Source: Prorocentrum cordatum (lineage: Eukaryota). Taken from it: a stretch of DNA of 64,000 nucleotides. The notes beneath the pieces are model-generated. The model worked only from the letters and a program-made list of their open reading frames with translations, ran no database searches and was not told the origin of the DNA. Positions 11,790 through 63,300 of this stretch are shown piece by piece. A program made the translations under genes and the position numbers. The stretch lies in the NCBI GenBank assembly GCA_963575745.1, contig CAUYUJ010000270.1:124001-188000 (forward strand), in the 5' to 3' direction. How positions within the stretch are numbered: the first letter of the stretch is position 1; each line of letters starts with the position of its first letter.

Positions 11790-12343
11790 GCGCACATCCA
11801 CTGACCCAGCGCCTCTTTGCCTGAAAGGGTCAAGTATGGGATCTTGCCCTCAACGATCAGGTCCACTCTTTGACCGTTGGGCAACAATAGGTAGGGCCTT
11901 TGGCCTGCTGGCCAGAAGAAACAAAAGCCGCGATCCATGAACCGCTCTCCTACCGAAATCACGCACGGGGTCTCCGGCATGACTAAAGCGTTAAAACTAC
12001 CACCCTTGAACTTAGGGCATGCGATGCGAACTGAGCCGAGGGCTTTTGACTCTCCCCCGGCAGTATTCAGAATGATCGATTGCGGAAGCTTTCGAATCAA
12101 TCTCATCGCACCTGCACTTTTAATATACTTCTCCGCTATGAGGTTATACCCACACCCTGTTTCAATAATAAAGCTCAGCGCTCCAAGATACGCAGCATTC
12201 TTGTCTGCGCATCCCGCAGCGGCTGTGCCGCGTGGGCCCTCTTCCCCCTCCTCAGGCCTCAAACAAAGGTGCCAGGCGTCATCTTGGACGTCTGAGGCCC
12301 TGATCAGGGCCTCCGCAGCAGACGCTCTCGACTGAGTAGACAT
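11790..12343 (-). pseudogene. Retrotransposon aspartic protease (DTG motif reads ETG)
   Basis: FIIETGCGYNLI...LNTAGG...TPCVISVG...GFCFFW in ORF 11081..12343, in frame with the integrase zinc finger. Confidence 0.8.
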
Positions 12344-12921
12344 CTGTCGGCGTATTTATCCTGGGAACTTCCACCTGTCTTTGTCACTTGAGGGCAACTC
12401 TTTCAGGTCGTGGCGACGCGCCTTCCTGCAAGTGATGGCGGGCTCCGCAGTCGATGGGTGCAATCAAACGCGGAATTGGCACCGACCCTTCATCTGAGAT
12501 CGACTGCAACTCTTACTAGGGGCGTCGCTCCAGTACATCTTGATAGCGCCCCGAGAAAGAGGACACAGGAAATTTGCAAGGATATTTACAAGATTCTCAA
12601 CTTGCCTCCTGCATTCGTCGTGAAACTCTCCACTGGCGGGATTCCTGTCAACTCTCCCCCACCAGAATTTAAGGGGGCCTTTGAAAAAAAGGGGCCGGCC
12701 TGCTTCTGCCCAGGAAGGCCCCGAGCTAACGGAGCGGGGCGCGCTATTGCACCCAAGCTGACTTGGTCAGTGGATACCTTCCCCCCCCCCCGCTTTCGGT
12801 TTGACCGACGCGGGCGTCGCCGCGCCCGTCGAGCGAGGAAGATAGGACAGAGTACCCTTAATCAAATTATGCCAATCAGTCTTCCAGCGCTGGCGGCTGG
12901 GCCGCCAGTGCGGAGCCAATG

Positions 12922-14733
12922 TCACGGATGGCCAGTCGTGGTCTTGGCAAACCAACAATCTTTACCACGCGTGCATTTGCCTGTTTCTTTGAAAAGGTGA
13001 GAAATCATGTCTTTGCCTTTGCCTCTGCCCTTGTTCTTGTCTCCGTCTTTTCTGCGTTTCTCTGAACTGTTACTGGAGGCCCTGGAGCCACCATCACCCG
13101 CAGTTGAGGAGACATTGACAGCCGCGGCATTGGCTCGTTTAACTGTTCGCTCATATCCCAGAGACTGTCCCGCGTCAAGCTTCGCTTGTTCATACTTGTC
13201 GCGCTTGAGCTTCTCTGCATCGGTCAAGCCTCTGTGTTGCTTGTCGCAACCGTCTAAAAGCCCACGGCAATTCTTGGGGCCCCGCGAATAAGCATAACAT
13301 GGCAGCGAACTCTCTTTTCCGCGCGAACGGTTGGATTGACTCCTGTTCCGCTGCTGCGCTCCATTTCCACGGCCACCCGTCGGAGTCTGCGATCGGCTCT
13401 GCCCCTTTCGGCCTCGGCCGTCGGGTTTCTCAGATCTCCCTCTGGGATTCTTGTTCTGAGCTGGGGCAGCATTTGACTTGGTTCCCGCAGCCGGCTGGGC
13501 CGGTGCGGCAGCTTTGGGCTTCTTATGATTAAATGGGCATCCCTCACCTGCATTCGGGCAAATCTGGCACTTACGTGCAAACTTGCACGTCGTCTCGCCC
13601 TTAGTCAATTCGCTCTTCATAACATCCGAGGGTTTCCCGCGACGGGCTGCCACTTCTGCCAGGGCGGCTTTGCCGTTGGCATATCGACGATTGTCATTGC
13701 CATTGCCTCCACTTCCGCCTATTCGTGCCTGTCGAGCACGTTGATTCAGAGCGCCCTCATGCATGCTGGTGTTCCATTCTTCCTTGTCGCGCAACTTCAT
13801 TCCTTCAATCTGGGACATGAGCCATTCGTAGGACCTCACGCCTTCTCCTAACTTATCTTTGGACAAGTCGTAAAGTTGACACACGAAATCTAACTTCTTC
13901 GGCTTCCTGCATTGTTCGATGAAGTGTGCACGGATCGAAGCTCGCATCTCATCAGATGGAGGTCGGACGCCGCAGAGCTGCTGGTAAACGCCTGTCCATT
14001 CATCATAGAAATGAGATAAGTCAGCATCTGGCTTACTGGGGTCAATAACTACCTTGAAGATATCACGCGAAATGCGATGTTGACCCAACTCCGATCTGTC
14101 GGAACACCAATGACAAATGGCTCGTATCATCTCGCGCCCCGTTAAGAGCCTCTCCTCATTCTGGGCGCCATACTCCATTCGACTGATCTGTTGAAGGAAG
14201 TGCATGTGATGATTGGACAGATTACGATTCCTACGCATCTTGGTGAACTTATCAATCAAATTTGCTGCGATCATGATGTCAAGACGCCTGAAGCGACCTG
14301 GGTGTCTGAGCTGTTCGTTTTCTACAGCAGGGGCCATAGTTTCCATGATCCAACGCTGTGCTGCTTGAATCTCAGGAGATGATCCAGCAATAGCTCGGAC
14401 TGCATGCATCTGCCACTCCCGTATGTTTGTAACATCAGGAATGTCCATCAGATCAACCTTCTGATTGTTTCCAACCTGTCTCCACTGGTCCAAAGGGGTA
14501 CTCTCATCAAGGCCTCCCGGGTCATGTGGCCCTCCTGGGCCCTGAGGTCCGCCGCGACCACCTCCACCGCCTGGGGATCCAGGCCCCCCCGGGCCCCCCT
14601 GGGGGCGGCTTCTCTGGCCGGTCGCGGATGGCATCATTAAGTGCCGACAGAATCTCAGTACTCGGTGCGATACTACTGTCATCCCCATCCTTGTCCTGTC
14701 CTTCCCCGCCCGGCGGCGTTGCCGCTGGCGCAT
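12922..14733 (-). pseudogene. Gag core with C-terminal Cys/His (CCCH-like) fingers
   Basis: 603-aa ORF directly upstream of PR. A helical core (LDIMIAANL...LLTGREMI) is followed by CKF..CQICP...CPFNH, CYAY...C...C..QH and a third degenerate finger. Confidence 0.8.
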
Positions 14734-17570
14734 GGTCTTGATTTCCGCCAGACGGCTGGGCCGCCGGCGGTCTCACAGGCCCGCCCTTAGAGAATGAATG
14801 ATAGTTGACAAAAGTCGCGTCGTCACTGACACCTGTGAAATTCATATTGATAGGCAAACGATTCTCGGAGGCACTCGGCTTGGCCGGACCTTCGATTGCA
14901 GGGCCAGGAACAGTACAATTGGATCGCCTGACGAGCCTTACAGGCGTTTCATGTGAAAGCAAAGGTATATCAAATGAACTAGAATTGGGCAATGCATCCT
15001 GCTCCTTCTCCCAATATGGGAAGGACTTGGTGGTGATGGCCTTGAGCTTCATCACTTCTCTCTCCGATGCAACTTCGCGGGCCGGGGCCTCACCCTTCTC
15101 CCGCATGTTGACAGCTGCCCGTCTGAGCCCAGTCTAATCTGCTTATCAGCTTGCTCCTTCATTCGCTGAACATTGAGTTTATCAGCGCTGCATTCGTCCA
15201 GAAGCTTTTGCTGTTGAGCTCGAAAGTCACGATCAGCGCTGCGTTTTCGCCGCTGCTCGCCCCGCTTCTCCTGTTCTGCTGGCAAACTCTTCATTTGAGT
15301 GCATGTAGAACACCGCCTGGTGCTCGCATTGAACTGGTCTTTGCAGCTTGGCAGTCCACAAGCGGCGCATTCCCCTTCTTTCGGGTTGAAGCAAATCGAG
15401 CAACTTTCTCCATCATCCCATCTCGCGGGCTATGGCTGCGGCGCAGCCCTTACTTTCAGCATCGGCGGCATCGCGCCCCCCATGGTCGTCAAGCCAGACT
15501 GGGCCTGCGAAGACGCTGCGCCGGACGGCTGGGCCGCTGGCGACGGTCGTCTACTCGCCCCAGCCGGCTTGGCCGGTGGGCACGCATCTTCGCTTAACTG
15601 CATGCGCTGAAGAGATGCCCTGGCGTTCTCATGTAACTTGAGCTCTTCGCGATATTGATTATTATGATCGACTATCGTCGCAGCTACAATCTGGGCATTG
15701 CCCACTTCCAACCTGGCAGTTTGCAGTTGATCTTGGAGCTCCTTTTTTTCTTGTTCTGCCTGGCTGTAGCGACCCTCTTTCCTTTTATTCTCGCCGCCGC
15801 AACAGCGGCGGATGCGATCGCGGCATCAACAGGTTGACTGGTCACCGTCGCAACGGTCTGTCGTTCGGAGGCTATCATCTCAGCATATATGTTCTTGGCT
15901 TCTTCTTCCGCGCGCTGTTTGGCAGCCGCGGTCTGATGGGGCATGTGCCCCGCCAGCTCTTGTTCCCGATCTCTGGCAGCTCAAGCCAGAGCGAGTCTTT
16001 CAGCCTCGAACGTCTTCCGAACGCCCTCAGGGACTGCACTCATCTCTTCTCGGTCCAGTCGGGCCTTCTCGGTCCTCTGGGCTTCACGGCCCAGGAATTA
16101 TTGCCGAGTTTTGGCCTCAACAAACTTAGCCTGGTCCTGTGAATGAAAAGGTACGGGCAACTATGCTCTTCCATCGGAATGCAATCCTCACGCAACCACT
16201 GATTGCTACAATTGGGGCACACGTCTGAGCAATTCCTACATACTGGGCGCCTACAAGCTCCATTCGGTCTGCGGGCTTTCCCCGGGCATCTGTTCTCCGC
16301 CTGGGGCGGGCAGTTGGAGCCCCAGTTCCAGCATGTCTCGCGCATGGATATAGTACTGTTGCTCCTCGAAACGGATCGAGCTCCAGATCTTGGCATCTTG
16401 GGCCTTCCTCTGCTCGAAGCATTCGATCTGGGACGTGCGTGCGTACTCTCTGGCGGTCTAGCCGCCTCTCGAAGCTCCTCATCCCTTTCATCTTTTCTAA
16501 TCAACTCATTCAGCGAAGCCGGGGGGGTGATCATTCCATCGTCCTCAACTACAACGGGTATCGACGGTTGCCAATCGCCTGCGGCGACGGCAGTCCGATG
16601 GAATCCTTCCTGAAGCGGGGAATCGTTCAAGTCATAAGATTCATTCCTTTGCTTCTTGAGTTGGGATCTCCCGGCCATGCTTCGCATGAGTCTGAAAACC
16701 CATTTCCGCCTCATCCGCCTGGGGCGGCAGGTCACTTATCTCGGTATCCGAATCTGGTTCTGCCAACGCTTTCCCAAGGGCTTCCACGTGATCGTAGTCA
16801 ATTGTATCCTGCCCAGGGGACCACCTCTCGTCTTGGACGGGGTGGTCTGCGTCAGTTATCGAAGACAAATCTCGGCCCAATGATACTTGATAGTCGGCGT
16901 AACCAATGTCTTCCTCCATGGAATTTATGTCGTCTCCATCATCAAGCTGTTCATCACTATCTTGGCCGGTTTGCCCATTCAAGGCTGTAGGGATAGGATG
17001 AGTCCCGTGAGCGTTCCCCCATCCGTCTGGGACGGTGGGGCACACACCTCTGGACCCATCGGCTTCTCCCGACCCACTGGCTTGGCCAGCGGCCGGCACA
17101 ATAGTCCGCATAGCAATCGGGCTGGAATGTATTGTCTCCGAAGATTCGGCAACCAATGACGAAAATGCTCCTCGTCTAATTTTTGCTGTTGTGCCGTCCC
17201 GTCTCTTCGGGTCTGGGGTCTGTTCACGATCACCGATCGGGACTCGAGAGGGAGAATCGTCTCTTGACACATCAATAACCTTTCCCCTACTCCTTCCGCG
17301 AGAGACCCGAGTGGTGATAGAAGAAACGGGAAGGCGGCCCCTCCCCGGGCCGCTCTCCTGTAGTCCTTGCCCGTCACGTTGTAAAACTTGGGATCCAACG
17401 GGCAATTCGGCTGTCTCATCATAGCTCATCCCTGTTGCGACTTGGTCGCGGGTTTCGGCCAATAACCAGTCTTTCCTCTGAGAATCGGGGTAAGATGACA
17501 AAGGAACTGAGGTATCGTGATGACTCTGCTCAATAGTAGAGGATACGGGATGAGACATCGATGAAACCAC
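14522..17570 (-). pseudogene. Very long frameshifted Gag N-terminal extension (disordered, Cys-rich finger, coiled coil)
   Basis: Chain of overlapping minus-strand ORFs: 16641..17570, 16040..16735 (with CRRPVCRNCSDVCPNC...C...H.C), 15684..15944, 15430..15711, 15052..15294 and 14522..15106. Confidence 0.6.
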
Positions 17571-20309: not shown

Positions 20310-21235
20310 GCCCTTCACACGGTTCGTGGCACCATAGGGAGCTCCACCGAAGGCCAAAGTGGCAGCGGTTGCATGCGTCACGGCCGCCCCATGCTGGCAC
20401 ATCCCTCACACGGTTCGTGGCCCCATAGGGAGCTCCACCGAAGGCCCCAGCAAGAGCGTCCGCATGGCACCACCGCTTCATTTCGGCACACCCCTCACAC
20501 GGATCCTGGCCCCATAGAGAGCTCCACCGAAGGCCCCAGCGGGAGCGTCCGCATGGCACCGCCGCTTCATTTTTTCACACCCCTCACACGGATCCTGGCC
20601 CCATGAGGAGCCCACCGAAGGCCCCAGCGGGAGAGTCCGCATGGCACCGCCGCCCCATTGAGGCACACACCTCATACAATTTGTAACTAAAACTCCACCA
20701 ACAACTCCAGCGGGAGCGTCCACCTAACACCGCCAAACCATTTTGGAACACCCCTCACACGGTTCGTGGCCCCATAGGGAGCTCCACCGAAGGCCCCCGC
20801 GGGAGAGTCCGCCTTGCACCGCCGTCACATCTGGCACACCCTTTACGCGGTTCGTGGCCCCATAGGGAGCTGGCCCCAGCGGGAACGTCCGCATGGCACC
20901 GCCGCACCATTTTGGCACACCCCTCACACGGGTCGTGGCTTCATAAGGAGCTCCACCGAAGCGGGAGCGTCCGCACGGCACTGCCGCCCAATTTTGGCAC
21001 ATCCCTCACATGGTTCGTGGCCCCATAGGGAGCTCCACCGAAGGCCCCAGCAAGAGCGTCCGCATGGCACCACCGCTTCATTTCGGCACACCCCTCACAC
21101 GGGTCGCGGCCCCATAGGGAGCTCCACCGAAGGCTCCTGTGGGAAAGTTCGCATGGCACCGCCGCCCCATTTCGGCACACCCCTCACACGGTTCGTGGCC
21201 CCACAGGGGGAGCTCCACGGAAGACCCCACTGTCG
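20310..21235. repeat. ~89-bp tandem satellite, about 10 units
   Basis: Unit ccctcacacggttcgtggccccatagggagctccaccgaaggccccagcgggagcgtccgcatggcaccgccgc recurs at ~20403, 20492, 20582, 20752, 20921, 21003, 21092, 21181. Confidence 0.95.
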
Positions 21236-33791: not shown

Positions 33792-33882
33792 TCTTCGACG
33801 CTCTGTCTCCGAATTCGGAGCATGCGCAGCCAACCCGATGCGGCCTCCCCCCACCATCCCTGTCAACAATAGAAAGTACACT

Positions 33883-33911
33883 TGGCGGCGGCGGCGGCTG
33901 CGGCTGCTGCG

Positions 33912-33958
<47 letters not shown>

Positions 33959-34180
33959 GGCGGGGGCAGCGGCGTTGGCGGCGGCTGCGGCGGCGGCGGC
34001 GGTGGCGCGGTGGCGGTGGCGGCTGCGGCTGCGGCGGCAGCGGCTGCGGCGGCGGCGATTTGGCAGCGGGGGCGGCGGCGGCGGCGGGGGCGGCGGCGGC
34101 GCGGCGGCGGGGCGACGGCGGCGGCGGCGGCGACGGCGGCGGCGGCGGCGGCGGCGCGGCGGCGGCGGCGGCGGCGGGCA

Positions 34181-34214
<34 letters not shown>
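33883..34214. repeat. (GGC)n microsatellite
   Basis: Directly visible. Confidence 0.97.
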
Positions 34215-34814
34215 ATTGGCCCCCGGTAGCTGCCCATCCATAGACGACTGCTGAATATGCTGAGGCTCGGGGCAGACTCGGGTGCTACGTATGTGTTGGG
34301 AGGGCGGGTGGGAGTGAGCGAGACGGCTTACGGGCGGGGAGGGAGTCTTGACCCCTCCCCGTACCCCCTCCACTGGACCTGGACGGGGCGCCCCGCGACC
34401 GATTAGAGCGCCCAAGAAGGCATCGGCTAGAAAACACAAATCATTGATTTTACGTAAAGTGTGGGCCCATGTTGGTCTCCTAGGGGGCGACCCTAACTGA
34501 GGACCCCCCCTATTTGATCGAGTTCCTCCAAGGTGGTCCCAAGATGGCCGCCGAGGCTCCCAAGAGCGCCCAAGGGTCCCAAGAGGCGCCCAAGAGGCCC
34601 CAAGAGGCCCCTAAGACGTCCCCGACAGGTTCTCAAGAGACCCCAAGAGGCCTCAAGAGGCTCATCCGAGACACCCAAGATGGTCCAATAGGCTCCTCGG
34701 AACGCCAAGAGACCCCAAGACGCCCTAATATAACCCCACGGCGCACTCGAGAGGCATCCGAAGAAACTCGGGGGGGGGGCCCAAGAAGCCTCTGGCATGT
34801 CGGATCGCATTCAC

Positions 34815-36120
<1,306 letters not shown>

Positions 36121-38720
36121 TCGGGTGTGACTGGCGTCCCAGCCCTGCATTCCACTGCATGCTCCTCCACATCCCTGATCAGGGCAACTCGCCTGGGTAG
36201 GGTTTTTGGATGGGCTGGTGGGCTTGCGCGAAACGTCTAGAATATATCCACGTCCACCGTCAGCTGGGGCCTCAGGACATCGTTTCCTGGGGGCGGTGGA
36301 TTGGGGGCGCGCCCGATGGGGTGGCACGAGGGGGGGGGGCCTTGTAAAACGCTCGCGCTACCCCACTGGGCGCGCCGCCCAATCGATATGGATTAATATC
36401 AGCATCGTCTTGGGGGACAGGCACTCTGGACCGCCCGCGCCCGCGCACGCCCGCCGGCACGCCCGCCGCCCCGAAGCGGCGGCCGCTCCACGGCGACGGC
36501 GCCCGACGACGACGGCGGCGTCGACGACGACGACGAGGCCACCGCTGGCGGCGACGACGGGAGCGCCGCGGTAGGGCCGCTCCTGCAGGCCGCCGCCCTT
36601 GTACTGGGCGAGCCTGGGCGCCGCGGATTGGCGCGCGCGCGTCCAGCACGCCTCCACGGCAGCGGCTCGTGCCCTTCCGGCCTGGCCTTGAAGGTATACG
36701 TTCGCCGATCCTGGGGCAGGAGGCTCGCCTGGCCAAGCTCGGTGTGGGCTCCCTGTTGGCGCCCTTCCGGGGAGGGGGAATGGAGGACCGCAACGCCGTA
36801 CGAGAGACGTCGTCTCTACCACAAGCGTGCCACGGCATGCCATCGCATACAACTATCATCGCACACCATTCCAAAAACATCGCACGGACGTGCTAACGCA
36901 TAACAGGAACTGGCATGGCGGGCATGGCTGGCATGGCTGGCTGGGCTGGCAGCGCTGGCAGGGGGGGGGGGGCGGGGAGGGACGGGCGAAGGAGAGGAGG
37001 GGAACTGGGGGGGCAGAAGGGGAGGAGAGGGCGAGGAGGTGGGGGGAACCGCAAGGGGGGGGAAAGGTGGGTGTCCCAATGCGTCGGGCGTTCCACGGGA
37101 GGCTTTCACCACACCAGTCTGTATCTTGGTGGCCATCCAAGTGTTGTTGCGCTTGTGAGCATCACTTGCAGCAGTGAATGTGTGAGCGGCCAAACTCGAC
37201 TAGCTTCAACCAACGAGCATCATGATGCTAGCCAACGCAAGCTCCGAACAACATGCACTTGCACTCGCGGTGTGCAACATTTATGCCATTTATGCTACAA
37301 CATGTGCAAAGGCACCCAAAAGGCTGTTATCAATGCGGCCAAATTCACATGACACTATTGGAGTCCAAACGTCGTGCCACATCTTATCAATCCACCCGCA
37401 ACTTTTTGGCACAACTCAACTTGGCGACGGTAGCGATGACGATAGTGATGTCCATGGAACGTTGTCGACAACGACGAAGGTGGTGGAGCTGATGGTTGTG
37501 GTAATGATAGTGGCAATGATTACGTTGGTGATGCAAATGATGACGGTGCGGGCATGGATGATAAAATGCTCGAGCTGAAGCTTGACACGGGCAACTGCAT
37601 CGACGATGACAATGATGACGGCGGTGGTGATGATGACGACGATGATGACCATGATGACGACGATGGAAACGGCAATAAAGGCGCTGGTGGTGATGAGAAC
37701 GGTTGTAGTGATGAAGATGGTGATGGCGCGCGCGCTCGCATACGTTCAGCATTTCGGACACGTTGTATTGAAAATCATTGAACCATCGTACGTGTATTAA
37801 TACTTCTGTTGGAATGCTGAGACCTCCAATGGCCGCGAAACAGCCAACGCTGCGACTGCCGCGAGGGGCCCGAATGCCAGAAGGCGCGTTCGTAAACAAC
37901 GGATGCTAGAAATGGTCAGGATTATCCAAAGAATTCGAGAAAGTTGCCGTGTTGTGCTGCGGCGTGCCCGCGCGCCGTGCCGTGCCACGCTTGGCCCCGA
38001 GAATTTGAAGAAACAACTAGTGCCGTGCCTTGGTTTGCCCGCGTGGCGTGCCGTGCCGGGCTTAGTTTCAAGAACTCATTCATTCATTCACAGCATTGGT
38101 GCAAATCGTTCGAGTGAGCACATCTCGCTGAGAAAAAAGAATGCAACCCAGATATCTGATCAGCGGTGCGATGTCCCTGCCCTTCTGGCGGTCCAAGAGC
38201 CCCCACTCCTTGCGGGTGGACTCGTAGCCGACAGACGCGCAAGCGTCCCAGCCTGAGTCCCACGCCATCCGACATATAGGGATGGTCGCGGGAGCCCGAG
38301 TGCAGGGCCGAAAACGGGCCGAAGGAGGTAGACCATCCGAGTCTCTTACACTGCTGCAGAGCCTCTAAGCTCTCGAAACAGATCGACGCACACGACATGC
38401 GAAGGTGAAGCTATGAAAGTCAGCCGTATTCCGAGGTCGTACGCGGGTCGAGTCTAACTTATGCAGAAAAGATACCACGAGAGAGAAAGAGAGAGAGAGA
38501 GAGAGAAACGAACGGAAGGAGGAAGAGGGCAAGAGGAAGAGGGCGAGACGCGAGAACAGGGGGGAGAGGAAGAAGAGGGGAGGAAAAGAAGCCTCCTGCT
38601 GCGGTGCCTCATTTGCGGCGCCCTGTGACCTGCGCGGGCGCGTCTAGGTTGAAGCCAGCGGTTCGCACGGATGTGTCGAACAGAAGCCAGAGAAGCCAGA
38701 TTAGTCCTTTGCCGCCAAGC

Positions 38721-39183
38721 CACGACTTGAATGATGCGCTTGGTCTTGATACCGCAACTGCGTTTACATGTCCCCGCGGTACATCATGCCAAACGCCATG
38801 TACTTGCCGTAGCCAGGGTCACACTTCACGTACATGTGTGCGGGCTCGAAAACGGGCATGGTGATGTCCTCCACTGACAGCTGCACTAGGTACGCCATCT
38901 CCGCAGAATTCCCGCGCGCACAGCTCGAGAGTATGAAGTGGATGCGCGTGTCGGGCACCAAATTGTTAACGGGCGAAGAACGGTATAACATTTTTGTTTC
39001 GCCGTCGGGGGCGCCTGTCCCTGGGCGGCTGGAAAGTTTATACCCCTACGGTGCCACCGTAAGGGTATAAACTTTCCAGCCGCCCTGGGACAGGCGCCCC
39101 CGACAGCGAAAACAATTATTTTATACCGTTCTTCGCCCGTTAAAATTGGTCTGCAACTCGGCGATGTCCACGTTCGGGGCGTA
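38721..39183 (-). pseudogene. TUBA: Alpha-tubulin intronless fragment (roughly residues 247-344), interrupted by a MITE
   Basis: [23 protein letters not shown]...[46 protein letters not shown]...IKTKRIIQ matches alpha-tubulin NVD.TEFQTNLVPYPRIHF.LSS...SAEKAYHEQLSVAEIT...FEPA...VKCDPRHGKYMACC.MYRGD...IKTKRTIQ. Confidence 0.93.
38965..39143. mobile_element. 179-bp near-perfect palindromic MITE with AATT target-site duplication
   Basis: Arms ttaacgggcgaagaacggtataa...acggtg / caccgt...ttataccgttcttcgcccgttaa centred at 39054. AATT lies at 38961-38964 and 39144-39147; removing the element and one copy restores the tubulin QTNLVP codons. Confidence 0.92.
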
Positions 39184-40099
39184 TAGCGCGGCGGCACAGC
39201 CGTGCCTAGCCGTCGGAGGCGGAGCGGGGACAGTAGGTGGGAAAGACACCAAAAACTTCAGAAAGCGCTGTTGGCATGCGAAGGAATTGCCGTGCACTGC
39301 CGTGCCTGGCTGTTTGTTCACTGCAATCAGGAAGAAATTCCATGCCGCCGCGTGGCGACCATGCTTATCATCATGCAGCGTCGGTTTTTAGGGTGTCTTG
39401 TCTATATGGTTTCGGTTTGCCGGAAGCGGCCCCAGAAATTCGGCCGTCGCCGCAGCGAGACGATCTATGCAAGCATCCCTGTCCAGAGGCACAGCGCGCC
39501 GGGTTTCATAAAGCATTGGGCCGCGGCGCGCTCAGAGCACGATTAACCGCGCCGAGTCAGCCCTCACCGACCTGCAACGTGAGAGCGGGACCGGCTCAAT
39601 CGCATATTCCTGGGCGGCATTGGGCGGCTTGGGCTATCAGGCCCCTGTTGGTGATCAATGTGCGATCGGGGGTCGATGCGTCCTCCCCTGAGCCATCCCC
39701 CCCGTAAGGTTGACCCTGACTTACTGACTGCGACATCTTGGCCCGCATTGTTGGGCAAAGGAGCGACAGGAAGGTGGCGGGGGGGGGGCAGGCGCGGCCA
39801 TCAGCAGGGTGCCGGTCGCAAGGGCCCGCAGCTGGGCGTCGGCTGAGCAGGACAAGGGGGAAAAAGCGAAGTGGAAGAGAATGAGGGACGGGGTTGCACT
39901 CCTCTTCCTCCACTCTTTCTTCGTCCCCATTTTCTCCTTCCGCTCTGTTCTCCCCGTCCATCGTTCACTTCCCGCCTCTCCCCCCCTCTCCGCCCCCCTT
40001 CCTCCCCCGTCCTATTACCTCTCCGTCCTCCCTGGTGATGCCCCCCTCTCCCGTCCACATCCTCCTCCTCCGTCAAAGTACGTCAATGGTTAAATTCAT

Positions 40100-40412
40100 T
40101 GACCTCTGGGGACCTCCTTCTCCTCCTCATTTTCCTCCTGGTCGTCCTCTTCCTCCTCTTCCTCCTGTTCCTCCTCCTCCTCCTCCTCCTCCTCCCCCTC
40201 CTCCTCCTCCCCATCCTCCTCCTCGTTGTCGTCCTGTTTCTTCTCCTCCTCCCCCTCCTCCTCCTCCTACATCCTCCTACCTCCGTCCCCCCGTCCCTCC
40301 CTCATCCTTTCCCTTTCTCCCTCCCACCCCACTCCCCCTGCTCCTTCCTCCACCCCCATCGCTCCTCCCCCCCACTCCTCCATCCCTCTACCCCTCCCCC
40401 CTCCCCCCTCCT
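40100..40412. repeat. (CCT)n / pyrimidine-rich low-complexity tract
   Basis: Directly visible. Confidence 0.9.
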
Positions 40413-45780: not shown

Positions 45781-47400
45781 AGCAACATGCAAGTGGCGAC
45801 CTGCCCGCGGCGCCCGCGCATACCGCAGCGCGCGCGAGCGCCGCAGCGCGCGCGCGCCGCGGTGCCCGCGCGCACCGCAACAGCCGCATGCGACGCAGCG
45901 CCTGCGCGCACCGCACTGCTCACGCGCGCCGCAGCGCCGGTGCGCGCCGCGGCGAATGCGTGGCACCGCAGCAAACACCACGCTGTGCACACCACGCTCG
46001 CGTGTACCGCAACGCCTGCGCGCGCCGCCAAAACCGCGGACACTGCAATGCTCGCGTGCACCGCAGCGCGCGCGTGCGACGCAGTGCCCGCGCACACCGC
46101 AGCGGCCGCGTGCGACGCGGCGCCTGCGTGCACGGCAGCGCTCGCGCGCACCGCGGCGCCGGCGTAGGCCACGGCGAATGCGCAGCACCGCAGCAGCCAT
46201 ATCCAACGCAGAGCCCGTGTACACTGCACTGCTCGCGCACACCGCAGCGCCCGCGCACGCCGCAACGCCTGTCTACACCGCAGCGCCCGCGCGCTCGCAG
46301 CGCCGGCGCGCGCCGCAGCGCCTGCGCGCACGGGGCATGTAGAGGAGCGCGCAGGCGAGGATCTGCCGCGGACTGCTAACCGCGGCCAGAGAAGTGCTGA
46401 TAATAGATTGCGACGTTCTTCCCTCTCCCCTCCTCTGCCACCTCCACCTCCGCCTCCACCTCCTCCTCCTCCTCCTCCTCCTCCTCCTCCTCCTCCCCCA
46501 CCCCCCGATGCGGATCCTCGTGGGATTCCCAGCGCAGACCTGACTCCAACGCGGACTTCAAGGCGGGCGCCGATGGAGATGCGGGCGCGCACGGCGGCAT
46601 CGACCTGGGCGCGCTGGAGGGGGGGGGGGGGGGGGGGGGGGGTCGCGATGTAGGGGAGGGGGGGGGGGGGGGGGGGCGGGTGCCGCGGCGCCAGCCATGC
46701 CATCGTGCCCCGAGAAATGAAGAAACGCGCTCGCGCAAGAACCTATCGGCCGTGGCCCGGGTTACCTTGGCCATCTCTTTGTAGAGCGCCTCGCCCCTCT
46801 GGCCGCGGGGGCGCCGGCCTCTGCGCCAGCTCGCGCGCGGCCGGGGCGAACTCGCCCGCTCACTTCTCGTTGTGATTGCACTTCTGGTTGATCGCGAGGG
46901 TCTTCAGGCGCTCGGCAACCCACTCGTGGACCTCGGCGCTGTAGCTTTTGCGCTCGGCCTGTCTCAGGTGGAGCAGTTTGTCCCGGTCGAACTCTGGCAC
47001 TGAGCGCACCCGCGTCGCGATCGTCTCCCCCGCGACCTCGCGGCCGCGCTCGCCCCCCCGCTTGGGCCCGCGCTCCGCGCGGCGCATGGCGCCCTTGAGC
47101 GGGCGTTCGGCGGTGACCAGACAGGGCGTCTCGCGGGAGAGCCCGGCGCCCTCGCTTTTGCGCTCGCCGCAGCTGGGGCGGGCGCGCCCGCGGGCTCGGA
47201 GACCGTTCTTGCCGGGCCTCGCCGCGCCAACTCTCTCCTCGAGAGCCGCCCGGCGCCCGTGCCAGCTCGCGACCGTCTCCTCGCTGCAGCGCCACTTCTC
47301 GCGCAGCTTGGCCCTGGCGGCGCCGGGCGGGCGGGGGGGCTTGCCGACGCTGCGATCGTCGGCGCGCTCGCTCCAGTCGAGGATGACCTGGAGCTTGGAT
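43950..47400 (-). pseudogene. Probable pogo/Fot1-type (DD35D) DNA transposase relic, interrupted by satellites at ~45420-46740
   Basis: FADCLSSQW...APDVASFLHGPGTDEHGQLKA resembles the DDE_1 motifs D...PxxTSxLQPxD...K, with 35 residues between the Asp and the Gly (GGC, one transition from Asp). Further protein-like minus-strand fragments flank it. Confidence 0.4.
45800..46335. repeat. 18-bp degenerate minisatellite (gcgcgcaccgcagcgcct-like)
   Basis: Tandem units that translate as TAAPAR-like hexapeptides. Confidence 0.85.
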
Positions 47401-54300: not shown

Positions 54301-54975
54301 TCAGTCGCCAGCCCGTCGACCTCACTCCTGACCATCCCGTGCTGGAGACCCCCAACGTCTTATTTCTGGAATGCGCGAAGCTCTGGAGATCTCGATTGCC
54401 TTTTGTTTGCGCCGTGGCTATCTCTTTGCGAACCATGGGGCCCGAACAAGGCTCGTCGACCGCTCTGGCTTTTGTCAGGGCGCCGCCCCCTTCCCGCGCC
54501 CCCCCCCTCATGCCCGTGGAATCCCGAAGGCCGCGATGGCGACGAGGATGGCCGCCGCCGCCGCCCCCTGGCCCTCGGCGGGTTCCTATTGGCTCAACCC
54601 ATGGGCCCCCGGAGCTCTCGACGCTTCCCCCGCGGCCTGGGCGCTCTCGCGACGGTCTCGAGCCGGCGTTCTGGCCGAGGGCGCGCCTGCTAGCCCCGCC
54701 GCGCGCCCGCGCCCCCGGCGCCCGACCAAGTGCCCGCGTGGACCTGCCCGCCTGGCGCCTGCGCCGGATGGGGGCCGAGGAAAGGCAGCCATGGCGCCGC
54801 CCTCCGGGCCCCGGGCTGCCGAGGAGGCAGCGCGCGGGGAGCTCCTCGCGGCGCGCGCGGCCAGCGGCCTCGCGGCGGGCCACTCCAGCAATGGGGCGCG
54901 CCCCCGCGCGGGCCGCGGAGGGGCCTGGCCCGCGCGGCCGTCGCCGAGCTCCGCGGCGCCGCGGTGCACGCGCAC

Positions 54976-55165
54976 GAAGTCCGCTCATATCATCATTTCA
55001 TTCAGATCTACTGCTGCCGTCTCGGCACAGGCACTGGAAACAAGCGCGGCGCCGCCTGCCCGCGGCGCGTGGGAACAGGGGCCCCCGCCCTCTCCCTTGC
55101 CTTCCTCTACCTACGGCAACCCGCGTAGGTTCGAATCTCTGGTCGTCAATGTCAACCTACATGCA
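54976..55165 (+). repeat. Left LTR-like repeat (uninterrupted copy)
   Basis: gaag.ccgctcatatcatc...ctgctgccgtctcggc.cagg.actggaaaca...gcgccgcctgcccgcggcgc...ccctctc|cctt.cc.tcctctacctacggcaacc...gtaggttcga...ggtcgtcaat...acatgca. Confidence 0.8.
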
Positions 55166-56573
55166 AAAGTTACTGCCATATTATATTTCGCTCTCCGTTG
55201 CGACACCCCGCCTCGTCAGTGACTGAAGCGCGTCGCGCTGGACCCCGCGGGGGCCAGCGTCTTTACGCGCGCAGAGTCTCTGACGGAGCGCGGGCGCCAC
55301 TGCGCCGCGGAAAGGGCAATGGGGCCGGCCGTGCCGCCCCTCCCTTTCCGGCGGCGGCAATGCCGACGCGTTCGAGGCTGCGCTCGGAGACATCGTGGAT
55401 TCCGACGCGCCCCCCGCGCCGGCGCCCTTTCCCGCGCCCGGGTTCGGACGCGGAGCCCCGTCGACAACGCCGTCTCCTGGCGCCGCCTTTAGTTCGGGGC
55501 CCTCGCCCGTGGAAGCGCCCGCGGTTGCCCTCGAAGCCGCCGCCAGATTCGCCTCGCCTTCTTCTCTTTCAACCTTCGCTGGCGGAAACGCTCGCGGCGG
55601 TGGCGCCTGTGAAACGCCCCCCCGGAACGTTTCTGCGCGACGACGCCGCTGGGGCGCGCGGCGCCCCGCCCGAGGGCCCCGCCGCGGCTTCCGCCTCAGA
55701 ACATTCGCGAGCCATAGAAGATCGCGCTGGGCGGACCTCGCAGCGAAGAGCCCCCGAGCGGCACCGCATCCAGTCTCCAGATGGGGGCGGCAGCCGCAGC
55801 CTCTCCCAGCGGCGCCCGCAGCAGAATTCCCCGCGGCGCGACGTCGCGCCGCAATCGTCGCCCTCAGCCAGCGGCCCGGCAGAGCTCAGAGACCAAGTTG
55901 AAACTTGCACGACCCAATAGCTGTAGGGCCATGCTGCGCAGACAGCAACACCGAGGCAAAATCTCCACGACGCCCTTCCCCTCGTCGGCGCCCGGATCGC
56001 TGAAGATCGATCGAGCGTCGCGCAGGTCCTGCATCGAGCCGACCGCATGGAGTCGCACCGAGGTTCCCGCCCAACTGCAATTCAGACGCTCCGCGACTAC
56101 TTCGCGAGCGTCAGGGGCAAGGGCGCTGCTGCTGTCAGGGCGCAACGCGACGAGCTCCTGAGTTGCACGGCAAGCTGTGCTCTGCCGAGATTGCTATTGT
56201 TCAGCGAGTTGATGCAACAAAGTGGCGCGTGCCAGCGCTTGAGGACCGAGTCTCTACGGTCGAGCTACGGTCGAGCAACCGTTGCCTGACGTGCAGACTG
56301 CTCTGACTGAGTCTCATGTTGCACGGGCCCAGACTGGCCAGCTGGGCACCCCGACTTCGGTTTACGATTTCACCCCCCTCGCTGCCGGGATGGCCGAGGT
56401 GAGGAAGGCGGCGGGCCACGCGCAGATGCGACTCGCCCAGCTCTCCAAAGAAAGAAACGCTGGGAAGGGGAGGGCGGAGGAAGTCCTCGTCTGTTTGGAA
56501 CTACAGCGCGAAGCAAACAACCGACGATTCCAGGACATAGAACATCGGCTGGGCCGGTGCTCCCAGCGAGCAT

Positions 56574-57860
56574 ATGACACCCACCGCGAGGTACGTGGTC
56601 GACCAAAAAAGCGTCGAGGAGTTGCAGAGTGATCTCACGACCACCGACGACACCGTGAAGGCCCACGTTAGCGACGCCAAGAGCCATTGCCCTAATTCAC
56701 AACCTCCAGGACCCACCACAGACAGCGCCCCGACCCTCGCCGATGGAAACATCCGCGCAGGACAACCGCGACGGACGTCGCCGGGAGCTGCCCCTGCAGC
56801 AGCCTCAACGCAGACGCGCCGCGCATCTCCCGCGCGCGCGCCATCGCCGACGCCACCAATCCCGCCGCATAATATATCGCAATATTCTCTTGGTGGCACC
56901 AACAAGATCAAGGAATCAAGCGCTGCGTGTATCCCTCAACTGCCACGCATTACTCAGATACAGGAGTGGCAACATATGGTCCGGGAAAAATTCGGCAGCG
57001 CCTGCGGGCGCCCTGCCAGGGCGTGCACATTCCTCTGCGTTGCCGAACAATCTGGCGCTTCATTTAAGGACTTACAAGACAGTGGCGATTTCGAGGGCAT
57101 CGATTGCAAGCTCGCCGCTGGACTTTCGGCCGTTCGCAGTGCAAACCTCCGTTGCTGGATGAGAAACATCCGAGCTCAAGAACATACAGCAGGCCGCATG
57201 CTGAAAGGTAGACAGATCTATTGGGTTGTATTACAATCCTACAAGGTCATGGACGTCGACGACACAATGCGCGACTTCGAACTTCTCCTACTTATTCGCA
57301 TGCGGGACGACGATCTCCAACAAACCATTGTGGCCTTGGACAATCTACTCTTGTGATGCCGCGATCCACCGGACACGAAGATGCTCGAATCAATGCCCCG
57401 AGCTCAGATCCGCAAACATCCATGCATGACGCAAGACATGCACGACCACAGCAAAATGATGTCGAATGACCCCACTCGCATCTACGATTGGTTGCGAGAG
57501 CGCGTTTTGGCCAACGTCGAGATGCACCGACTCGAACGTAACCAGCATGACCTCAAACACGAGGCGACTCGTCACAAATTGACCGCATGCGCAGCGCACA
57601 AGGCAAGTCGTTGCACAAACGGCGAAAGGTGCAAACTGCTACATGCTGGTTCTGGCAACCGTTCCACGCCGGGGCCTCAAGGGCGCGCGTCGCAATCCAA
57701 CGTGGACGCCCGCGAGAAACGACCCTCCGCGGGACGAGGCGCGCAGCGGCCGCCCACAGACGGAGGCACCAAGAACTTCTGTTTCTCCATCGCAAACCAC
57801 GGCGCCTGCCCGCGACAATACCGGCGCATATGGCCTCACGTGGCAAAATGCAGCTTCTCT
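56574..57860 (+). pseudogene. Copia-type gag remnant
   Basis: PRITQIQEWQ...LQDSGDFEGIDCKLAAGL...MLKGRQI aligns by eye with the first element's gag (PDVTNIREWQ...LRHPGRFRRLDIMIAANL...LLTGREMI). Stop at 57354, then YDWL and Cys/His fingers. Confidence 0.75.
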
Positions 57861-59496
57861 GCCGACCCAGGCAAACACTTCGAGCAGAGCAACAGCTGCC
57901 GCCGCGCCCGCATCGCGTCTGACACCGAGACCCCCGAAAGGAGACCTAGCCGCACCGCAGTCAGGACCGCCGCAACAGGACGCCCTCCCCCGGACGTGCG
58001 GGGGGCAATCGACACTTCCCGCGCGGGGGGCACAGGGGCTCGCGGAGTCTGGGGGGCCGCAGGTGAATTTCTCAGGTTCCGCCCTCTCTTCCACCGCTTC
58101 GCCACGATGGGCCTGCCATGGGCGCTGCCCCCCCCCATCGGGCGCGGCGTCTTCCAGCGGCCCTGCTTCTGGAGACGCAAACTGGAGTGGCATCACTGCA
58201 ACAACTGCCGCGCCGATCGCGGCGGGAGCGCGGAGGCCGACTGCGCCGCCGCGCCTGCCGCAGGGCTCGCAGCACATGGCCAGCAGTCGCGTTCGGAGAA
58301 GCACCCGCAGGGCGCTCCCAAAGACGCGGTGGCGCTACAACCTCGAGCACTGCAGCGACAACACCTACAGCTACTGGTTGTGCCACCTGAAACACTGGAT
58401 CTAGATCGATGGGAATGATTGTGAAACTATGCTGCCTGATAAAATTGCGACTCGTACTATTGGACACTATGATAACCGTAGCAATCCTATTGGGGATCCG
58501 GCATACTGTGACCAACATATGTTTCGTTGTTTGATTTGTTGTTGATATGGTATCGTCAGGAATATGTTGGCAGTCGTGCCATCTTTCTTTCGATGCTCAT
58601 ATAACAACATATCGTTACCTATCTTTTGGCATGATGGTTGTAGACGTACCCTGGCAGGTCGCCCGCCATTCACACATGACATTTTTGGCGACATCGAGGG
58701 CGTCAGCGCACCCAGACAGGTCGCCCGTCGCAAATATTATCAGATCATACACTGCACTCCCTTTTCATGGGATGCCGGACACACAGAGAACGACCTATGC
58801 AAAGCATGATTCCCATGAAACTTCTTTGAATACCAGATTTGCACCGAATTGCCGATGGCCATCGCATAATTTCAGGGGGCCTGGAGTGCCTCACTCGTCA
58901 CGTTAACAGTACCAATTCTCTGATCAATCGTCGTAACAACTTTGATCGGAATACCAGCTTGATTTTGGGCCTGGAGTGCCCAGTGAATGATTATTCCTTT
59001 AGCATGCCTTGATCAGTTGTCGCCCCGACTTTGCTCACAACACTCTTTAATTTAGACTTTGGGTTGCTACGCACCCGCGCGATTTGAATTCTTCCGTACG
59101 CGATGAACTGTGCGCCGGTGGAAACGCCCGCGTTTGTTTTTTCGACTTGGCATCGTTTTCCACTTCTGTTATCCCTTGTTCTCCCGACCTCGTCACCCGT
59201 GGAGAAGGGGTGTCGCCCAGGAAAGTCGAAGCGTTTTGGGGGGCGCACCCTGGGCCCGCTAAAGGCAGGTAGACTCCCCCAAGTACCCTGCGTGACGTGG
59301 TTGGTCCCCTCTCTCTCTTTCCTAGCCATGACGGCCTCGTCTGGAAGTTGCATGGGATGCAATGATGTGCTGGACGGATCTAATACCTTTGATCCCGACC
59401 CCCGCCTCTGTCTCCCGTGGGCCCGAAGCCCACGTGGAACAGGCGGGATTAGGGACGGTGTCTGTGAAGCCCGCTCATATCATCTTTATATCCACT

Positions 59497-59534
<38 letters not shown>

Positions 59535-59623
59535 AACTGCTGCTGCCGTCTCGGCTCAGGTACTGGAAACAGGTAAAGCGCCGCCTGCCCGCGGCGCATA
59601 GGAAAGGGGATCGCTACCCTCTC

Positions 59624-59657
59624 TAGCCATTTTGGCTCAGCTCATGCGAGGCTCAAG
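59624..59657 (+). other. Genomic relict of the dinoflagellate spliced leader, plus a possible second degenerate relict
   Basis: TAGCCATTTTGGCTCAG equals the last 18 nt of DinoSL (DCCGTAGCCATTTTGGCTCAAG) minus one A. It is followed by ctcatgcgaGGCTCAAG. Confidence 0.9.
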
Positions 59658-59753
59658 CCCCAAGCAGTCAATAAACATCCCCTTCGTTCGTTGCATCTGC
59701 ACCATACTATGGGCCAGAAAGCAATGGGTTGAAACGTCGAGCAGCAAAGATGT

Positions 59754-60350
59754 TTGGAAAGGCGATGGCAATACAGACCAGAACCGCGACGGGAATGCAG
59801 AAAATTCGCAGAAATGATCGTAGAAAAGCTCGACGCGACATTGAATGACCAGTTTGATATAATCCGCCGGCCGGGCGAAATCGAGTCCCGCACCTTGCGC
59901 GCAGAAGTGCAGGCCAATCAATACTGTCAGCACCCTGTCCCAATTGAACCTATGGTAGCAATGCGCGGGACAATTTGGTATTTCGAGGTACCTAAATTTG
60001 AGTACATCGAGAAGGTTGTCGAAGTTCCCAAGGCTGTACTTGTAGAAAAGATCGCAGAGCAGGCACTTGTCATGCCAAGCGCTCGTGATAATGCAAGCAG
60101 TGGTGAAATGGGTCGAGACGGCGCCCCTTCTTGTGAGGCGAGTCGCGTATCTAGTGAAGATGAGACGATCAAGGAAGCGGAGGCCACAATTGACTGTCGA
60201 ATCTCGAGTATTCCGACAAAAGTCGATTTGTTCATCGATGCGAAGGACGAAACAAGTTACATAGGTCTGGTGATGGATACGTTTGGGAACCAAATTGTGA
60301 AATACAAACAGCACGAAGTCATCGAGGGTTGGAGTGGAGCAGCGTTATGA
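59754..60350 (+). pseudogene. Intronless retrocopy ORF with an alveolin/IMC-like EKxVEVP motif
   Basis: FEVPKFEYIEKVVEVPKAVLVEKI at ~59982-60053, downstream of the SL relict. An in-frame stop at 59730 precedes the ORF. Confidence 0.45.
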
Positions 60351-63300
60351 GTTCATGCATCGAGATTGTCTCTGGCGGAGTGTATGCGACAAATGTCACA
60401 GTGGGACTGGAGACCCGCTGAGCAAGACAGACGAGTTGTTGGAATCGATGTACAAATTACACAGTATATGGCCGAGGTGATGGGTTTCGCATGAGTGTAT
60501 GTGAGGCAAACGCGCCCCTTCTTTTTACAACGCTGCATGTTCAAACTCATGGGACGGATTGTACTAGTGGAGCCAATCGTAAACACTCGAGATCGTAAAG
60601 TAACCATGTGCTACGGCATCTGAGCTTCGGCGCTCCGGCGCCCCCGCCGAGCTCTTAGAGGGTCGCCCCCCGGGTTTCGCACATCCGCACCTGTCCTGTC
60701 CTGCCCCTTACCCTCCTCTACCTACGGCAACCATTGTAGGTTCGACTCTTCGGTCGTCAATTCACATGCACAGCGCCGCGTTGCCGAAACCGCCCGCGCA
60801 GGAGCCCCTGGCTGCGGCGTTCCCTCGGGGGCGCCGACGGCCTCGCGGGCGCGCGCGGCGCGGTGCGGGGCCCTCGGCAGGCGAGCAGAGCAAAGGCGGC
60901 GACATGCACGCGGAGCCGCCGAGGAGGGGTGGCGGCAGAGCGGCGGCACCTGACGCGCTGGCTGGGGGCCCAGGCGCGGCGGCGGCCGCAGGCGCTCTCG
61001 ATGCGGACGGCGACTTGGCATGCCTCGACGACGACGGCTGGGCCGACAGCCTGGTTCGCAGTCGGCCGCCCGATGGCATGGCGGGAGCTGCAGGTGCTGG
61101 GAGTGGTCCTGGTGCTGTGGCTGGCGGGGGGGCTGTGGAGCGCGCGGAGCTCATGCAGCGCCTCGTCCTGATCCTCGGTCGGTCCGTCGACGGCATCCCT
61201 GCGCAGTTCGCCTCGCGCCGATCGAGAAGCTGCGGACGTTCACGTCGCTCGGCGAGTCAGTGCGGGGCCAGGGGCGCGAGGAGGTGGTCCTCTTCAGCGG
61301 CTCCGTGGTGCTCGTGTGAGCCATTTTGATGGCCGCGTCCCCCTCCAGGCGGGTCCAGGCGCAAACGTCTCTTTCCCTCAGGGCTGTCCTACATAGCTTA
61401 CGATGGTCTTGGGGGTCCCCACGGATGCCGAAATCCCCCACCGCCGCAAGGCACCAAGTGGAGTGTCGGCAGGCCCCTTTCGAAACTCGGCATTGGGTGA
61501 TGCAAGAATGCGGGCCAGACCCCAGATTTCCGAATTTCTTGGGCGCTTCCCCACCTCCGACCATGGGTCCTAAGATGGTTCCAGGGGGGCGTCTGAGGGA
61601 TATGTGGGGGTCATCGCGGGCCATCCCGAGGGCTGGCCCAGAGGAACAACACCATGGACAAGCGATAGGTGTGCATGACTTGAACACCTCTTCGGTCTTC
61701 AGAGCGCCCAAGGCGGATACTCCCACGAGAGCTCCAGGATGGCCCCCAAGGACACCCGCCATCGCCCCGCCGCCAAGGAGCCCCGTGCCGCGGCGGGGGC
61801 CGCGGCCGCACCAGTTTCACCTGCTAGCCCCGCCTGTTGCCGCCGCGTCGTCGGCGCCGTCGGCCGCCGCCGCCGCCGTAGTCGTCGACGTCTTCGAGGC
61901 TGCCGCCGACGCCCCCATGGGGGGCAACGATAGGGGGGATTGGCTCAGGGAGGGGCCATCGAGTTGGGCCACGATGGGCCCCCGATGGCAGAACCGCGCG
62001 TTCCTGGGCGGGGTGGGCTATCGAGCCCCATGTCAGCGATGCGTGGGCGATTGGGGGTCGATGCATCCACCCCTGAGCTTGTCACCCCCTAACACTGCCC
62101 CTGAGCCCCGAGCCCCCGCCCCCCCCCCCCCGTGGCGCGACGCAGACGGAGGTCATGCGCACAAGCTCGACGCTCGCGCCCTCGGCGGCAGCGGTACCGC
62201 CGCCGCTGAGCGCACAGGGCGTGCGGCACCGCCCCCGCGGCAGGCGGCGTCGTAGTCGCCGCTGTCGGCGCCGCCGCCGCCGCTGCCAGCATCGTCATCG
62301 TCGACGTCGTCGTCGCCGAAAGTCGAGGATACCTGGGCGCCCTGGTGCCCCTTCGAGCCTCCAGGAATCCTCTCGCCGACACGGCTGGATTTGCCTCAAA
62401 ATCCAGATTAGAACGCACCGCAGAAGATGTCCAGGGGCTGCCGTTGTCGTCGCCGCCGCCGGCATCGGCGGTGGCGCTATAGCTGTCGTCGTCGTCGTCA
62501 TATCTCTCTCTCTCTCTCTCTTTCTCTGTCTCTCTCTCACTCTCTTTCTCGTTCCCGTTCTCTTTATGTTTACATGTATATAAATGTGCGTGTCTCTCTT
62601 TCTCTCTCTCCTTCTCTCTCTCTCTCTCCCTCTGTGTGTCTCTCTCTCTCTCTCTCTTCCTCTCTCTCCCAGAGACATAGAAGAGCAGATAAGCCACAAT
62701 ATTCAGGCTTGTTCGCACCCTCACATCTAGGCATTCACACGCAGGTCCACTCATACTCAGCCGCTCGTGTTTCAGACTCCCTCACATCCAAGCACACTTC
62801 ACTTCTGAACGCGCCAGACATTGATGCACATGTGGACCTCAGACCACTGGACCGCGCGCCGGGTCGGGCGCCTCCTCCTGCGTCAGCTTCCCCGACGCGA
62901 GGCGGCTCAGCGCGGCGAGGGTCTGCGGTCTCCTGGGGGGACGAGGGCACCGCCTAACCGTCCTGGGCTTCCCACGGATGAGGAATCAGGAGGAGCAGGG
63001 AAGAGGACGAGCAGGAGCAATCGAATCGAGACATCGCACAAAAAAAACACCGCGGCGGACAGTTGATCATCGGTTTCGGCATCCGAAGGCCGCTTCACGG
63101 CCCCAGGACCGTCAAAAACTATCCAGGATGAAGGGCTGGTCCCCGGGTGCGCGCCCACGTCACGGACACAAAATTGCGGGAAGGGCAGACAGAATGAGGC
63201 GCGTTGAGGCGGGGCGCCTGAAAACGTTCAGTCGGACGGCCCCACGGGGGACGGGGGGAGGGGTAGGTGACGGAGACTAAATCTCAAAGACCCGATCGCT

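Follow-up and report, generated by a model that had tools for sequence, protein, structure and literature searches.

A tail-less, frameshifted copy of a spliced-leader mRNA at an exact point within a short repeat of Prorocentrum cordatum

1. Introduction

Processed complementary DNAs (cDNAs) that are tagged with the dinoflagellate spliced leader (DinoSL) and ‘recycled’ in dinoflagellate genomes are said to have been described by Slamovits and Keeling in 2008. DinoSL-tagged retrocopies and retrogenes are the subject of Song et al. 2017 (PMC5585692), Song et al. 2018 (PMC6050394), and Haro et al. 2025 (PMC12014239), and they make up ~22–23% of the gene models in two Symbiodiniaceae genomes (PMC5585692). 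The reverse transcriptases of retrotransposons are presumed to be responsible; the available text of PMC6050394 (2018) calls the element type unknown, and that of PMC12014239 (2025) calls the mechanism unclear. Here, we analyze one such copy in a 64,000-nucleotide (nt) stretch of Prorocentrum cordatum DNA (assembly GCA_963575745.1, contig CAUYUJ010000270.1, positions 124,001 to 188,000 of the forward strand), hereafter the window. It is a 1082-bp insert, headed by a spliced-leader (SL) relict, that occupies an exact point within one of two copies of a ~190-nt repeat.

Other routes by which an mRNA copy can enter a genome leave different marks. Endonuclease-independent insertion of long interspersed nuclear elements (LINEs) and the capture of cDNA at chromosome breaks give copies without a tail or a duplication and with little or no microhomology, and cDNA capture at breaks occurs in yeast and mammalian cells. 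Retrocopies made by template switching are documented for Ty1 in yeast, Bs1 in maize, Drosophila, and vertebrates, and the portion available of this work describes the resulting chimeras as having discontinuous long terminal repeat (LTR) retrotransposon flanks and microsimilarity at the fusion points (Tan et al. 2016, PMC5131818). The same source lists the hallmarks of processed pseudogenes of the L1 type, among them a 3' A-tail and a flanking target-site duplication.

2. A repeat present twice and interrupted once

The repeat lies in the window in two direct copies of equal orientation, with 4.3 kb between them, and the insert divides the right copy into two parts (coordinates are those of the window).

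54976..55165, + strand: repeat, left copy, uninterrupted; the empty site is between 55094 and 55095, CCCTCTC/CCTTGCC (the slash marks the junction)
59466..59623, + strand: repeat, right copy, 5' part; holds (TA)19 and an SL-like block, CCGTCTCGGCTCAG
59624..60705, + strand: insert, retrocopy of a trans-spliced mRNA; 1082 bp, unique in the window
60706..60770, + strand: repeat, right copy, 3' part; restarts at the base matching the nucleotide after the empty site of the left copy

The left copy reads ...GGCCCCCGCCCTCTC/CCTTGCCTTCCTCTAC... across its junction and has no insert. The right copy reads ...GATCGCTACCCTCTC (59623)/TAGCCATTTTGGCTCAG (59624–59640) at the 5' junction and ...CTGTCCTGTCCTGCC (60705)/CCTTACCCTCCTCTAC (60706 onward) at the 3' junction or, in short, CCCTCTC/TAGCC... 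and ...CCTGCC/CCTTACC. When the 1082 bp are excised in silico, both repeat copies align unbroken across the junction, with 157 matches, 26 mismatches, and 47 gap columns (85.8% identity over the ungapped columns), and a local alignment gives 82.5% identity over 143 nt. The gap columns derive mainly from the (TA)19 run at 59497–59534, which only the right copy has, and the two sides of the junction overlap by no more than 1 nt (one C). A preliminary description of this DNA had already placed the insert at a single point of the repeat, and the junctions at 59623/59624 and 60705/60706 bear this out to the nucleotide. Both repeat copies that it reported are present, with the right one running on to 60770; the left copy, which it took for an empty allele, is instead a diverged paralogous copy.

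Two diagnostic patterns drawn from the repeat match these two places only, against expectations of 0.00 and 0.01, and neither a third repeat copy nor a second insert was found within the 64-kb window. The DNA outside the repeat copies is unrelated by both blastn and tblastx. Since the flanks are unrelated at the DNA and the protein level, the pair does not stem from the tandem duplication of a larger unit, and the same comparison ruled out that the repeats are the 5' parts of paralogous genes or the ends of a segmental duplication. Because the repeat is continuous and only one copy holds the insert, the structure speaks for an insertion into genomic DNA, and we put at roughly 0.85–0.9 the probability that an SL-bearing cDNA was inserted into a repeat copy that was already in place.

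3. The spliced-leader head of the insert

The insert opens with one well-preserved leader relict, followed directly by a probable second one.

59624..59640, + strand: DinoSL relict, TAGCCATTTTGGCTCA-G; SL positions 5–20 exact, one A of the terminal AAG absent, first four SL bases absent
59641..59657, + strand: probable second, older, decayed relict, CTCATGCGAGGCTCAAG

The first 16 bases of the insert are all identical to positions 5–20 of the DinoSL, DCCGTAGCCATTTTGGCTCAAG (SL as printed in PMC5585692), and the first inserted base is the first base of the relict. Thus, the insert is 1082 bp headed by an SL relict, as had been proposed. The relict is the sole close DinoSL match on both strands of the window, and by our own estimate a 16-mer would arise ~3e-5 times by chance in these 128 kb of two strands. 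The CTC at 59621–59623 is also found in the empty copy and so belongs to the target, which means that the cDNA ends 4 nt short of the 5' end of the leader. The junction CCCTCTCTAG/CC is a candidate splice acceptor, a pyrimidine tract plus an AG (59625–59626), upstream of the relict.

The decayed sequence CTCATGCGAGGCTCAAG is probably a second, older SL relict, judging by its sequence; its 8-mer GGCTCAAG has just two occurrences on the + strand of the window and none on the − strand. A second decayed relict would imply that the source gene had already been recycled once before. Tandem and spaced SL relicts are described in PMC5585692, PMC6616646, and PMC12014239, and the first of these gives inter-relict gaps of 6 to about 450 bp in addition to adjacent relicts.

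SL-like sequence also occurs outside the insert. Both repeat copies contain, at 59545–59560 and 55016–55031, a block that reads CCGTCTCGGC(T/A)CAG and then G(T/C); it resembles a DinoSL that has lost its middle and kept its two ends, with a donor-like GT/GC after them, and it could be a chance likeness or a worn SL-derived block. At 20311–21229, an 89-bp satellite (10.5 copies, 76% matches) has a consensus unit ending in the SL-like 13-mer CCCCATTTTGGCACA and contains four of the eight window matches to CCATTTTGGCTCA (at most two mismatches). The satellite has neither a CCGTAG head nor a GT donor, so it is no obvious array of SL RNA genes.

4. The cargo is an intron-free, frameshifted coding region

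Behind the leader relicts, the insert carries a coding region and a presumed 3' untranslated region (UTR).

59709..60480, + strand: coding region co-linear with P0001 (266 amino acids, aa); two frames, intron-free
60481..60705, + strand: presumed 3' UTR part of the retrocopy; 225 nt after the stop, without an A-tail

We searched for homologues of the cargo protein exhaustively with HMMER among 1.84 billion representatives, listing matches at E 0.001 or better, and found five proteins. P0001 (266 aa, E 6.4e-26, 36% identity) and P0004 (197 aa, E 6e-10) are from metagenome assemblies in ENA; P0002 and P0003 are short fragments from one EukProt set, 80% and 72% identical to the open reading frame (ORF) of the window; and P0005 is a weak match to a repetitive protein of 1123 aa. 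A word-based search returned nothing at near lengths and P0002 and P0003 alone at shorter ones, and no relatives of the cargo protein were found in viral contigs or genome contigs.

In a tblastn comparison with the window, P0001 aligns over residues 18–266 as two abutting segments with no intervening sequence: residues 18–203 in frame 3 (59766–60308), and residues 208–266 in frame 1 (60301–60477, 40/59 identical), followed by a TGA stop at 60478–60480. The two abutting segments show that the entire coding region is present without introns. Together, the SL relict and this intron-free, co-linear coding region identify the insert as a reverse-transcribed copy of an SL-bearing mRNA, in agreement with the preliminary description. 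An intact reading frame, expected of a functional retrogene, is lacking: a frameshift at about 60301–60308 severs the best-conserved C-terminal 59 codons from the rest. Hence, the ‘intronless ORF’ reported at first is intronless and is not intact, and, barring a sequencing indel at the frameshift, the cargo is a processed pseudogene.

The longest ORF of the insert (59754–60350) encodes 198 aa from a TTG. The in-frame ATGs at 59709 and 59724 are followed by a TGA at 59730–59732, and the next in-frame ATG, the first within the longest ORF, is at 59814. The start of P0004 corresponds to 59814, so the TGA at 59730 is no safe sign of decay. In our own comparison of translations with the window DNA, part of P0003 is read in a frame shifted from that of the window, which suggests that other copies of the cargo gene have decayed too. 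No parent gene is present within the 64-kb window.

The three longer members of the family (the window ORF, P0001, and P0004) share a sub-threshold match to the Pfam family IMCp (alveolin, PF12314) at an EYIEKVVEVPK-type motif, scoring 17.5–18.9, 16.7, and 18.6 bits, respectively, against a cut-off of 21.1. The cargo thus has a motif in common with alveolins, at a sub-threshold level that does not establish family membership.

P0002 and P0003 are the only close relatives of the cargo, with an identity of 67–82% depending on the tool. EukProt labels their source as a green alga, a surprising label for a gene that here follows the spliced leader of dinoflagellates.

5. The 3' end of the insert

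There is no A-run at the end of the insert, which reads ...CCTGTCCTGCC and closes with the pyrimidine-rich CCTGTCCTGTCCTGCC. Nor is there a clear target-site duplication at the insert, the best candidate being 6–7 of 11 pyrimidine-rich bases; both absences had been noted before and hold. A match to the tail of the insert was found nowhere else in the window, and the fold predicted for the 3' end is not unusual relative to shuffled sequences (z +1.54). The GC content is 42–55% in the 100-nt bins across 59624–60623 versus 70% in the bin 60624–60723, and the last ~82 nt of the insert (60624–60705) could be a GC-rich 3' UTR end, filler, or a piece of another template.

6. Comparison with described retrocopies

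The locus is a clean, dead example of the well-known SL-retrocopy process and offers no evidence of a new capture mechanism. As in other DinoSL retrocopies, its intron-free coding region is immediately preceded by a relict spliced leader, and a further, decayed relict would mark an earlier round of recycling. The relict also starts near an internal AG, as do the AGCCATTTTGGCTCAAG units described in PMC6616646. Unlike a retrogene, this copy is frameshifted, i.e., a pseudogene, and a paralogous empty site fixes both of its junctions, whereas the available portions of the DinoSL literature do not give details of tails or duplications. With L1-type processed pseudogenes as described in PMC5131818, it shares the copying of an mRNA in trans, the lack of introns, and its being dead on or after arrival; in contrast to them, it has no A-tail, no duplication, and no 5' truncation beyond the four leader nucleotides.

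The small addition that the locus makes is the paralogous empty site, which fixes the junctions, a judgment made with no systematic search for junction-level studies. The filled site and its empty counterpart define both junctions of one event to the nucleotide, an event that left neither an A-tail nor a duplication. On its own, the locus is an anecdote of a dead gene copy; it is of value as a model for surveying filled and empty pairs across the genome, and such a survey could decide between LINE-type, LTR-type, and break-repair routes.

7. How the copy may have been integrated

The account that we prefer has, as a whole, about an even chance of being right, and its mechanism, reverse transcription primed by a pyrimidine tract, slightly less; it can be set out as three steps. 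(i) Source: the mRNA belonged to a small family of alveolate genes (P0001-like and carrying an alveolin-type motif) and had received a spliced leader by trans-splicing, its gene probably having been retroposed once already. (ii) Landing and priming: the target was most likely an existing ~190-nt dispersed repeat, inside its pyrimidine tract at CCCTCTC/CCTTGCCTTCCTCT, where a nicked or broken DNA end of this tract would have served as the primer. Priming would have taken place inside the 3' UTR of the mRNA, where the copy now ends in the similar CCTGTCCTGTCCTGCC, and the enzymatic step would be LINE-type target-primed, or break-primed, reverse transcription in trans. (iii) Extension and joining: reverse transcription would have run nearly to the cap, within 4 nt of the 5' end of the mRNA, and that end would have been joined bluntly, without staggered cleavage. 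Internal priming combined with unstaggered joining would explain why there is no A-tail, no duplication, and no loss of target. It would also imply a parent transcript that extends beyond the equivalent of 60705, with something like CCTTACCC at that place.

Several points weigh against this account. Neither of the classic LINE hallmarks, an A-tail or a target-site duplication, is present, and as no parent gene was found in the window, the 3' truncation and internal priming are inferred. The last 11 nt of the insert and the pyrimidines upstream of the left empty site are alike at 7 of 11 positions, a weak likeness (overlapping high-scoring segment pairs) that is within chance for such sequence. 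The last ~82 nt differ in composition from the rest of the insert and may be foreign to the same mRNA. A source of the enzyme is not apparent in the window either: no Pfam retroelement family and no reverse transcriptase were found in the 84 ORFs of 47–64 kb, and at 1–47 kb none of the 150 ORFs scanned, out of 163 with 125 aa or more (the other 13 lie at 44.6–47 kb), had a family at E 0.001 or better. In addition, an assembly artefact is countered by structure alone, the restart of the repeat at the next nucleotide, and this is a single case.

Nearly as good an explanation is that a ready-made SL-cDNA without an A-tail was end-joined into a double-strand break in the repeat, with no retrotransposon endonuclease involved; we regard it as a serious possibility with the odds clearly against it. 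The absence of a duplication, of an A-tail, and of target loss, together with an overlap of at most 1 nt, is the pattern of blunt joining, and the Pfam scans of window ORFs found no retroelement nearby. These are negative features throughout, with no positive mark among them, and the likeness to endonuclease-independent LINE insertion or break capture consists of such features alone. Unlike those events, in which filler and target deletion are frequent, the locus shows neither, and it has no mark of a break. The nearly complete 5' end, only four leader nucleotides short, is also not specifically expected from end joining.

A broader version of pyrimidine-tract priming would have SL-bearing RNAs pasted routinely, in one orientation and with neither tail nor duplication, into TCC-like pyrimidine tracts. 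The enzyme responsible would be a reverse transcriptase that targets repeats and is primed by annealing within the 3' UTR, and the ~190-nt repeat, with its SL-like block, would be either a recurrent landing pad or the solo LTR of the responsible element. We consider this generalization a long shot. If it were true, each new copy would arrive with a ready-made pyrimidine-AG acceptor for trans-splicing, and the long-missing integration mechanism for dinoflagellate mRNA recycling would be supplied.

8. The nature of the repeat and the remaining alternatives

The preliminary description had viewed the repeat as an LTR and the cargo as captured by template switching during reverse transcription of the LTR element. 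Two further features bear on whether the copies bound such an element.

54956..54963, no strand assigned, and 60773..60780: GCGCCGCG 8-mer; on the outer sides, at 12 nt from the left copy and 2 nt from the right copy
56541..58418, + strand: 626-codon frame between the repeats; one in-frame stop at 57354–57356, CCCH-like motif

We examined 65 ORFs between the repeats, 21 with 110 aa or more (E up to 0.01) and 44 with 45–109 aa (E up to 1), and none matched gag, protease, reverse transcriptase, RNase H, or integrase. No TGG occurs in the 25 nt after the left copy, leaving no TGG-type primer-binding site there. The 8-mer GCGCCGCG is GC-rich and of low complexity, a weak candidate for the target duplication of a putative LTR-bounded unit: an 8-mer or longer word was shared by 3.5% of 20,000 GC-matched random flank pairs (p ~0.035, post hoc). 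The stretch before the right copy is moderately purine-rich (14/19 purines), and the ends of the repeat are ambiguous with respect to TG...CA. With no retroelement domain, no primer-binding site, and this weak flanking word, the identification as an LTR is not supported; that the copies bound a single old non-autonomous element as its LTRs, or are both solo LTRs, we deem unlikely, and otherwise the repeat would be some other short dispersed repeat.

Given these findings, it is very improbable that a reverse transcriptase in a virus-like particle switched from the repeat, acting as an LTR, to a co-packaged SL-mRNA and back, producing a chimeric LTR with cargo. The direct copies of equal orientation at a distance of 4.3 kb would suit an LTR pair, as would the 8-mer near both outer ends and the purine-rich stretch before the right copy, and the repeat bears the SL-like block CCGTCTCGGCTCAG followed by GT. 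The cargo is embedded in a repeat, lacks an A-tail and a duplication, and may be truncated at its 3' end, as in LTR-mediated retrocopies (PMC5131818), and LTR elements have been argued to be the likelier agents of dinoflagellate retroposition (PMC6050394). However, the 65 ORFs between the copies lack retroelement domains, the largest frame there has no homologues, and the primer-binding site is missing. The flanks are continuous to the nucleotide and do not belong to a demonstrated LTR retrotransposon, and microsimilarity at the junctions amounts to at most 1 nt, whereas the signature described in the accessible part of PMC5131818 is one of discontinuous flanks with microsimilarity. Furthermore, the cargo is full-length at its 5' side, up to the leader, and is not a partial internal piece, and it would take a coincidence for two independent switches to land back on the adjacent base. 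An insert acquired during minus-strand synthesis would reach both LTRs, and only one copy has the cargo. The preliminary description had itself raised this last objection. If the copies are an LTR pair, the filling of one alone means that the event followed integration.

It is scarcely credible that no insertion took place, since an exact 1082-bp deletion in the left copy would have to start by chance on the first base of the SL relict and end so as to leave the repeat continuous, and after a mis-join in the assembly, the repeat would not carry on from the very next base.

Relatives of the repeat were sought with words from its two halves. A 24-mer of the 5' half had no match in viral contigs or in prokaryote genome contigs, and an 18-mer of the 3' half hit 13 metagenome and 2 viral loci, all 15 matching over 18–21 nt only, i.e., at chance level. 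Rfam gave nothing at the gathering score in the whole window and chance-level matches only in 54800–60900, a tRNA search found none, and the repeat folds no better than shuffled sequences on either strand (z −0.64 and −0.74). With no Rfam or tRNA match and no unusual fold, a tRNA-derived short interspersed nuclear element, a small nuclear RNA gene, and an SL RNA gene were dropped as candidates for the repeat.

The 626-codon frame between the repeats contains the motif C-x7-C-x5-C-x3-H and has no Pfam family above threshold. For the part at 57357–58415, no homologues of near length were found, and the protein atlas gave only leads below 0.9, to CCCH zinc-finger clusters. This frame may be another decayed gene copy.

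9. Other features of the window

Elsewhere in the window, long frames without a family lie on the minus strand at 1328–3814 (829 aa), 12925–14772 (616 aa), 4600–5874 (425 aa), and 11084–12355 (424 aa). Large arrays of GGC/GCG-type and TCC/CTC-type triplets occupy 33880–35300, 36000–36140, 40075–40315, and 46390–46500, with no SL relict inside them. At 38997–39111, there is a near-perfect palindrome, whose two 57-nt arms are 95% complementary and 1 nt apart.

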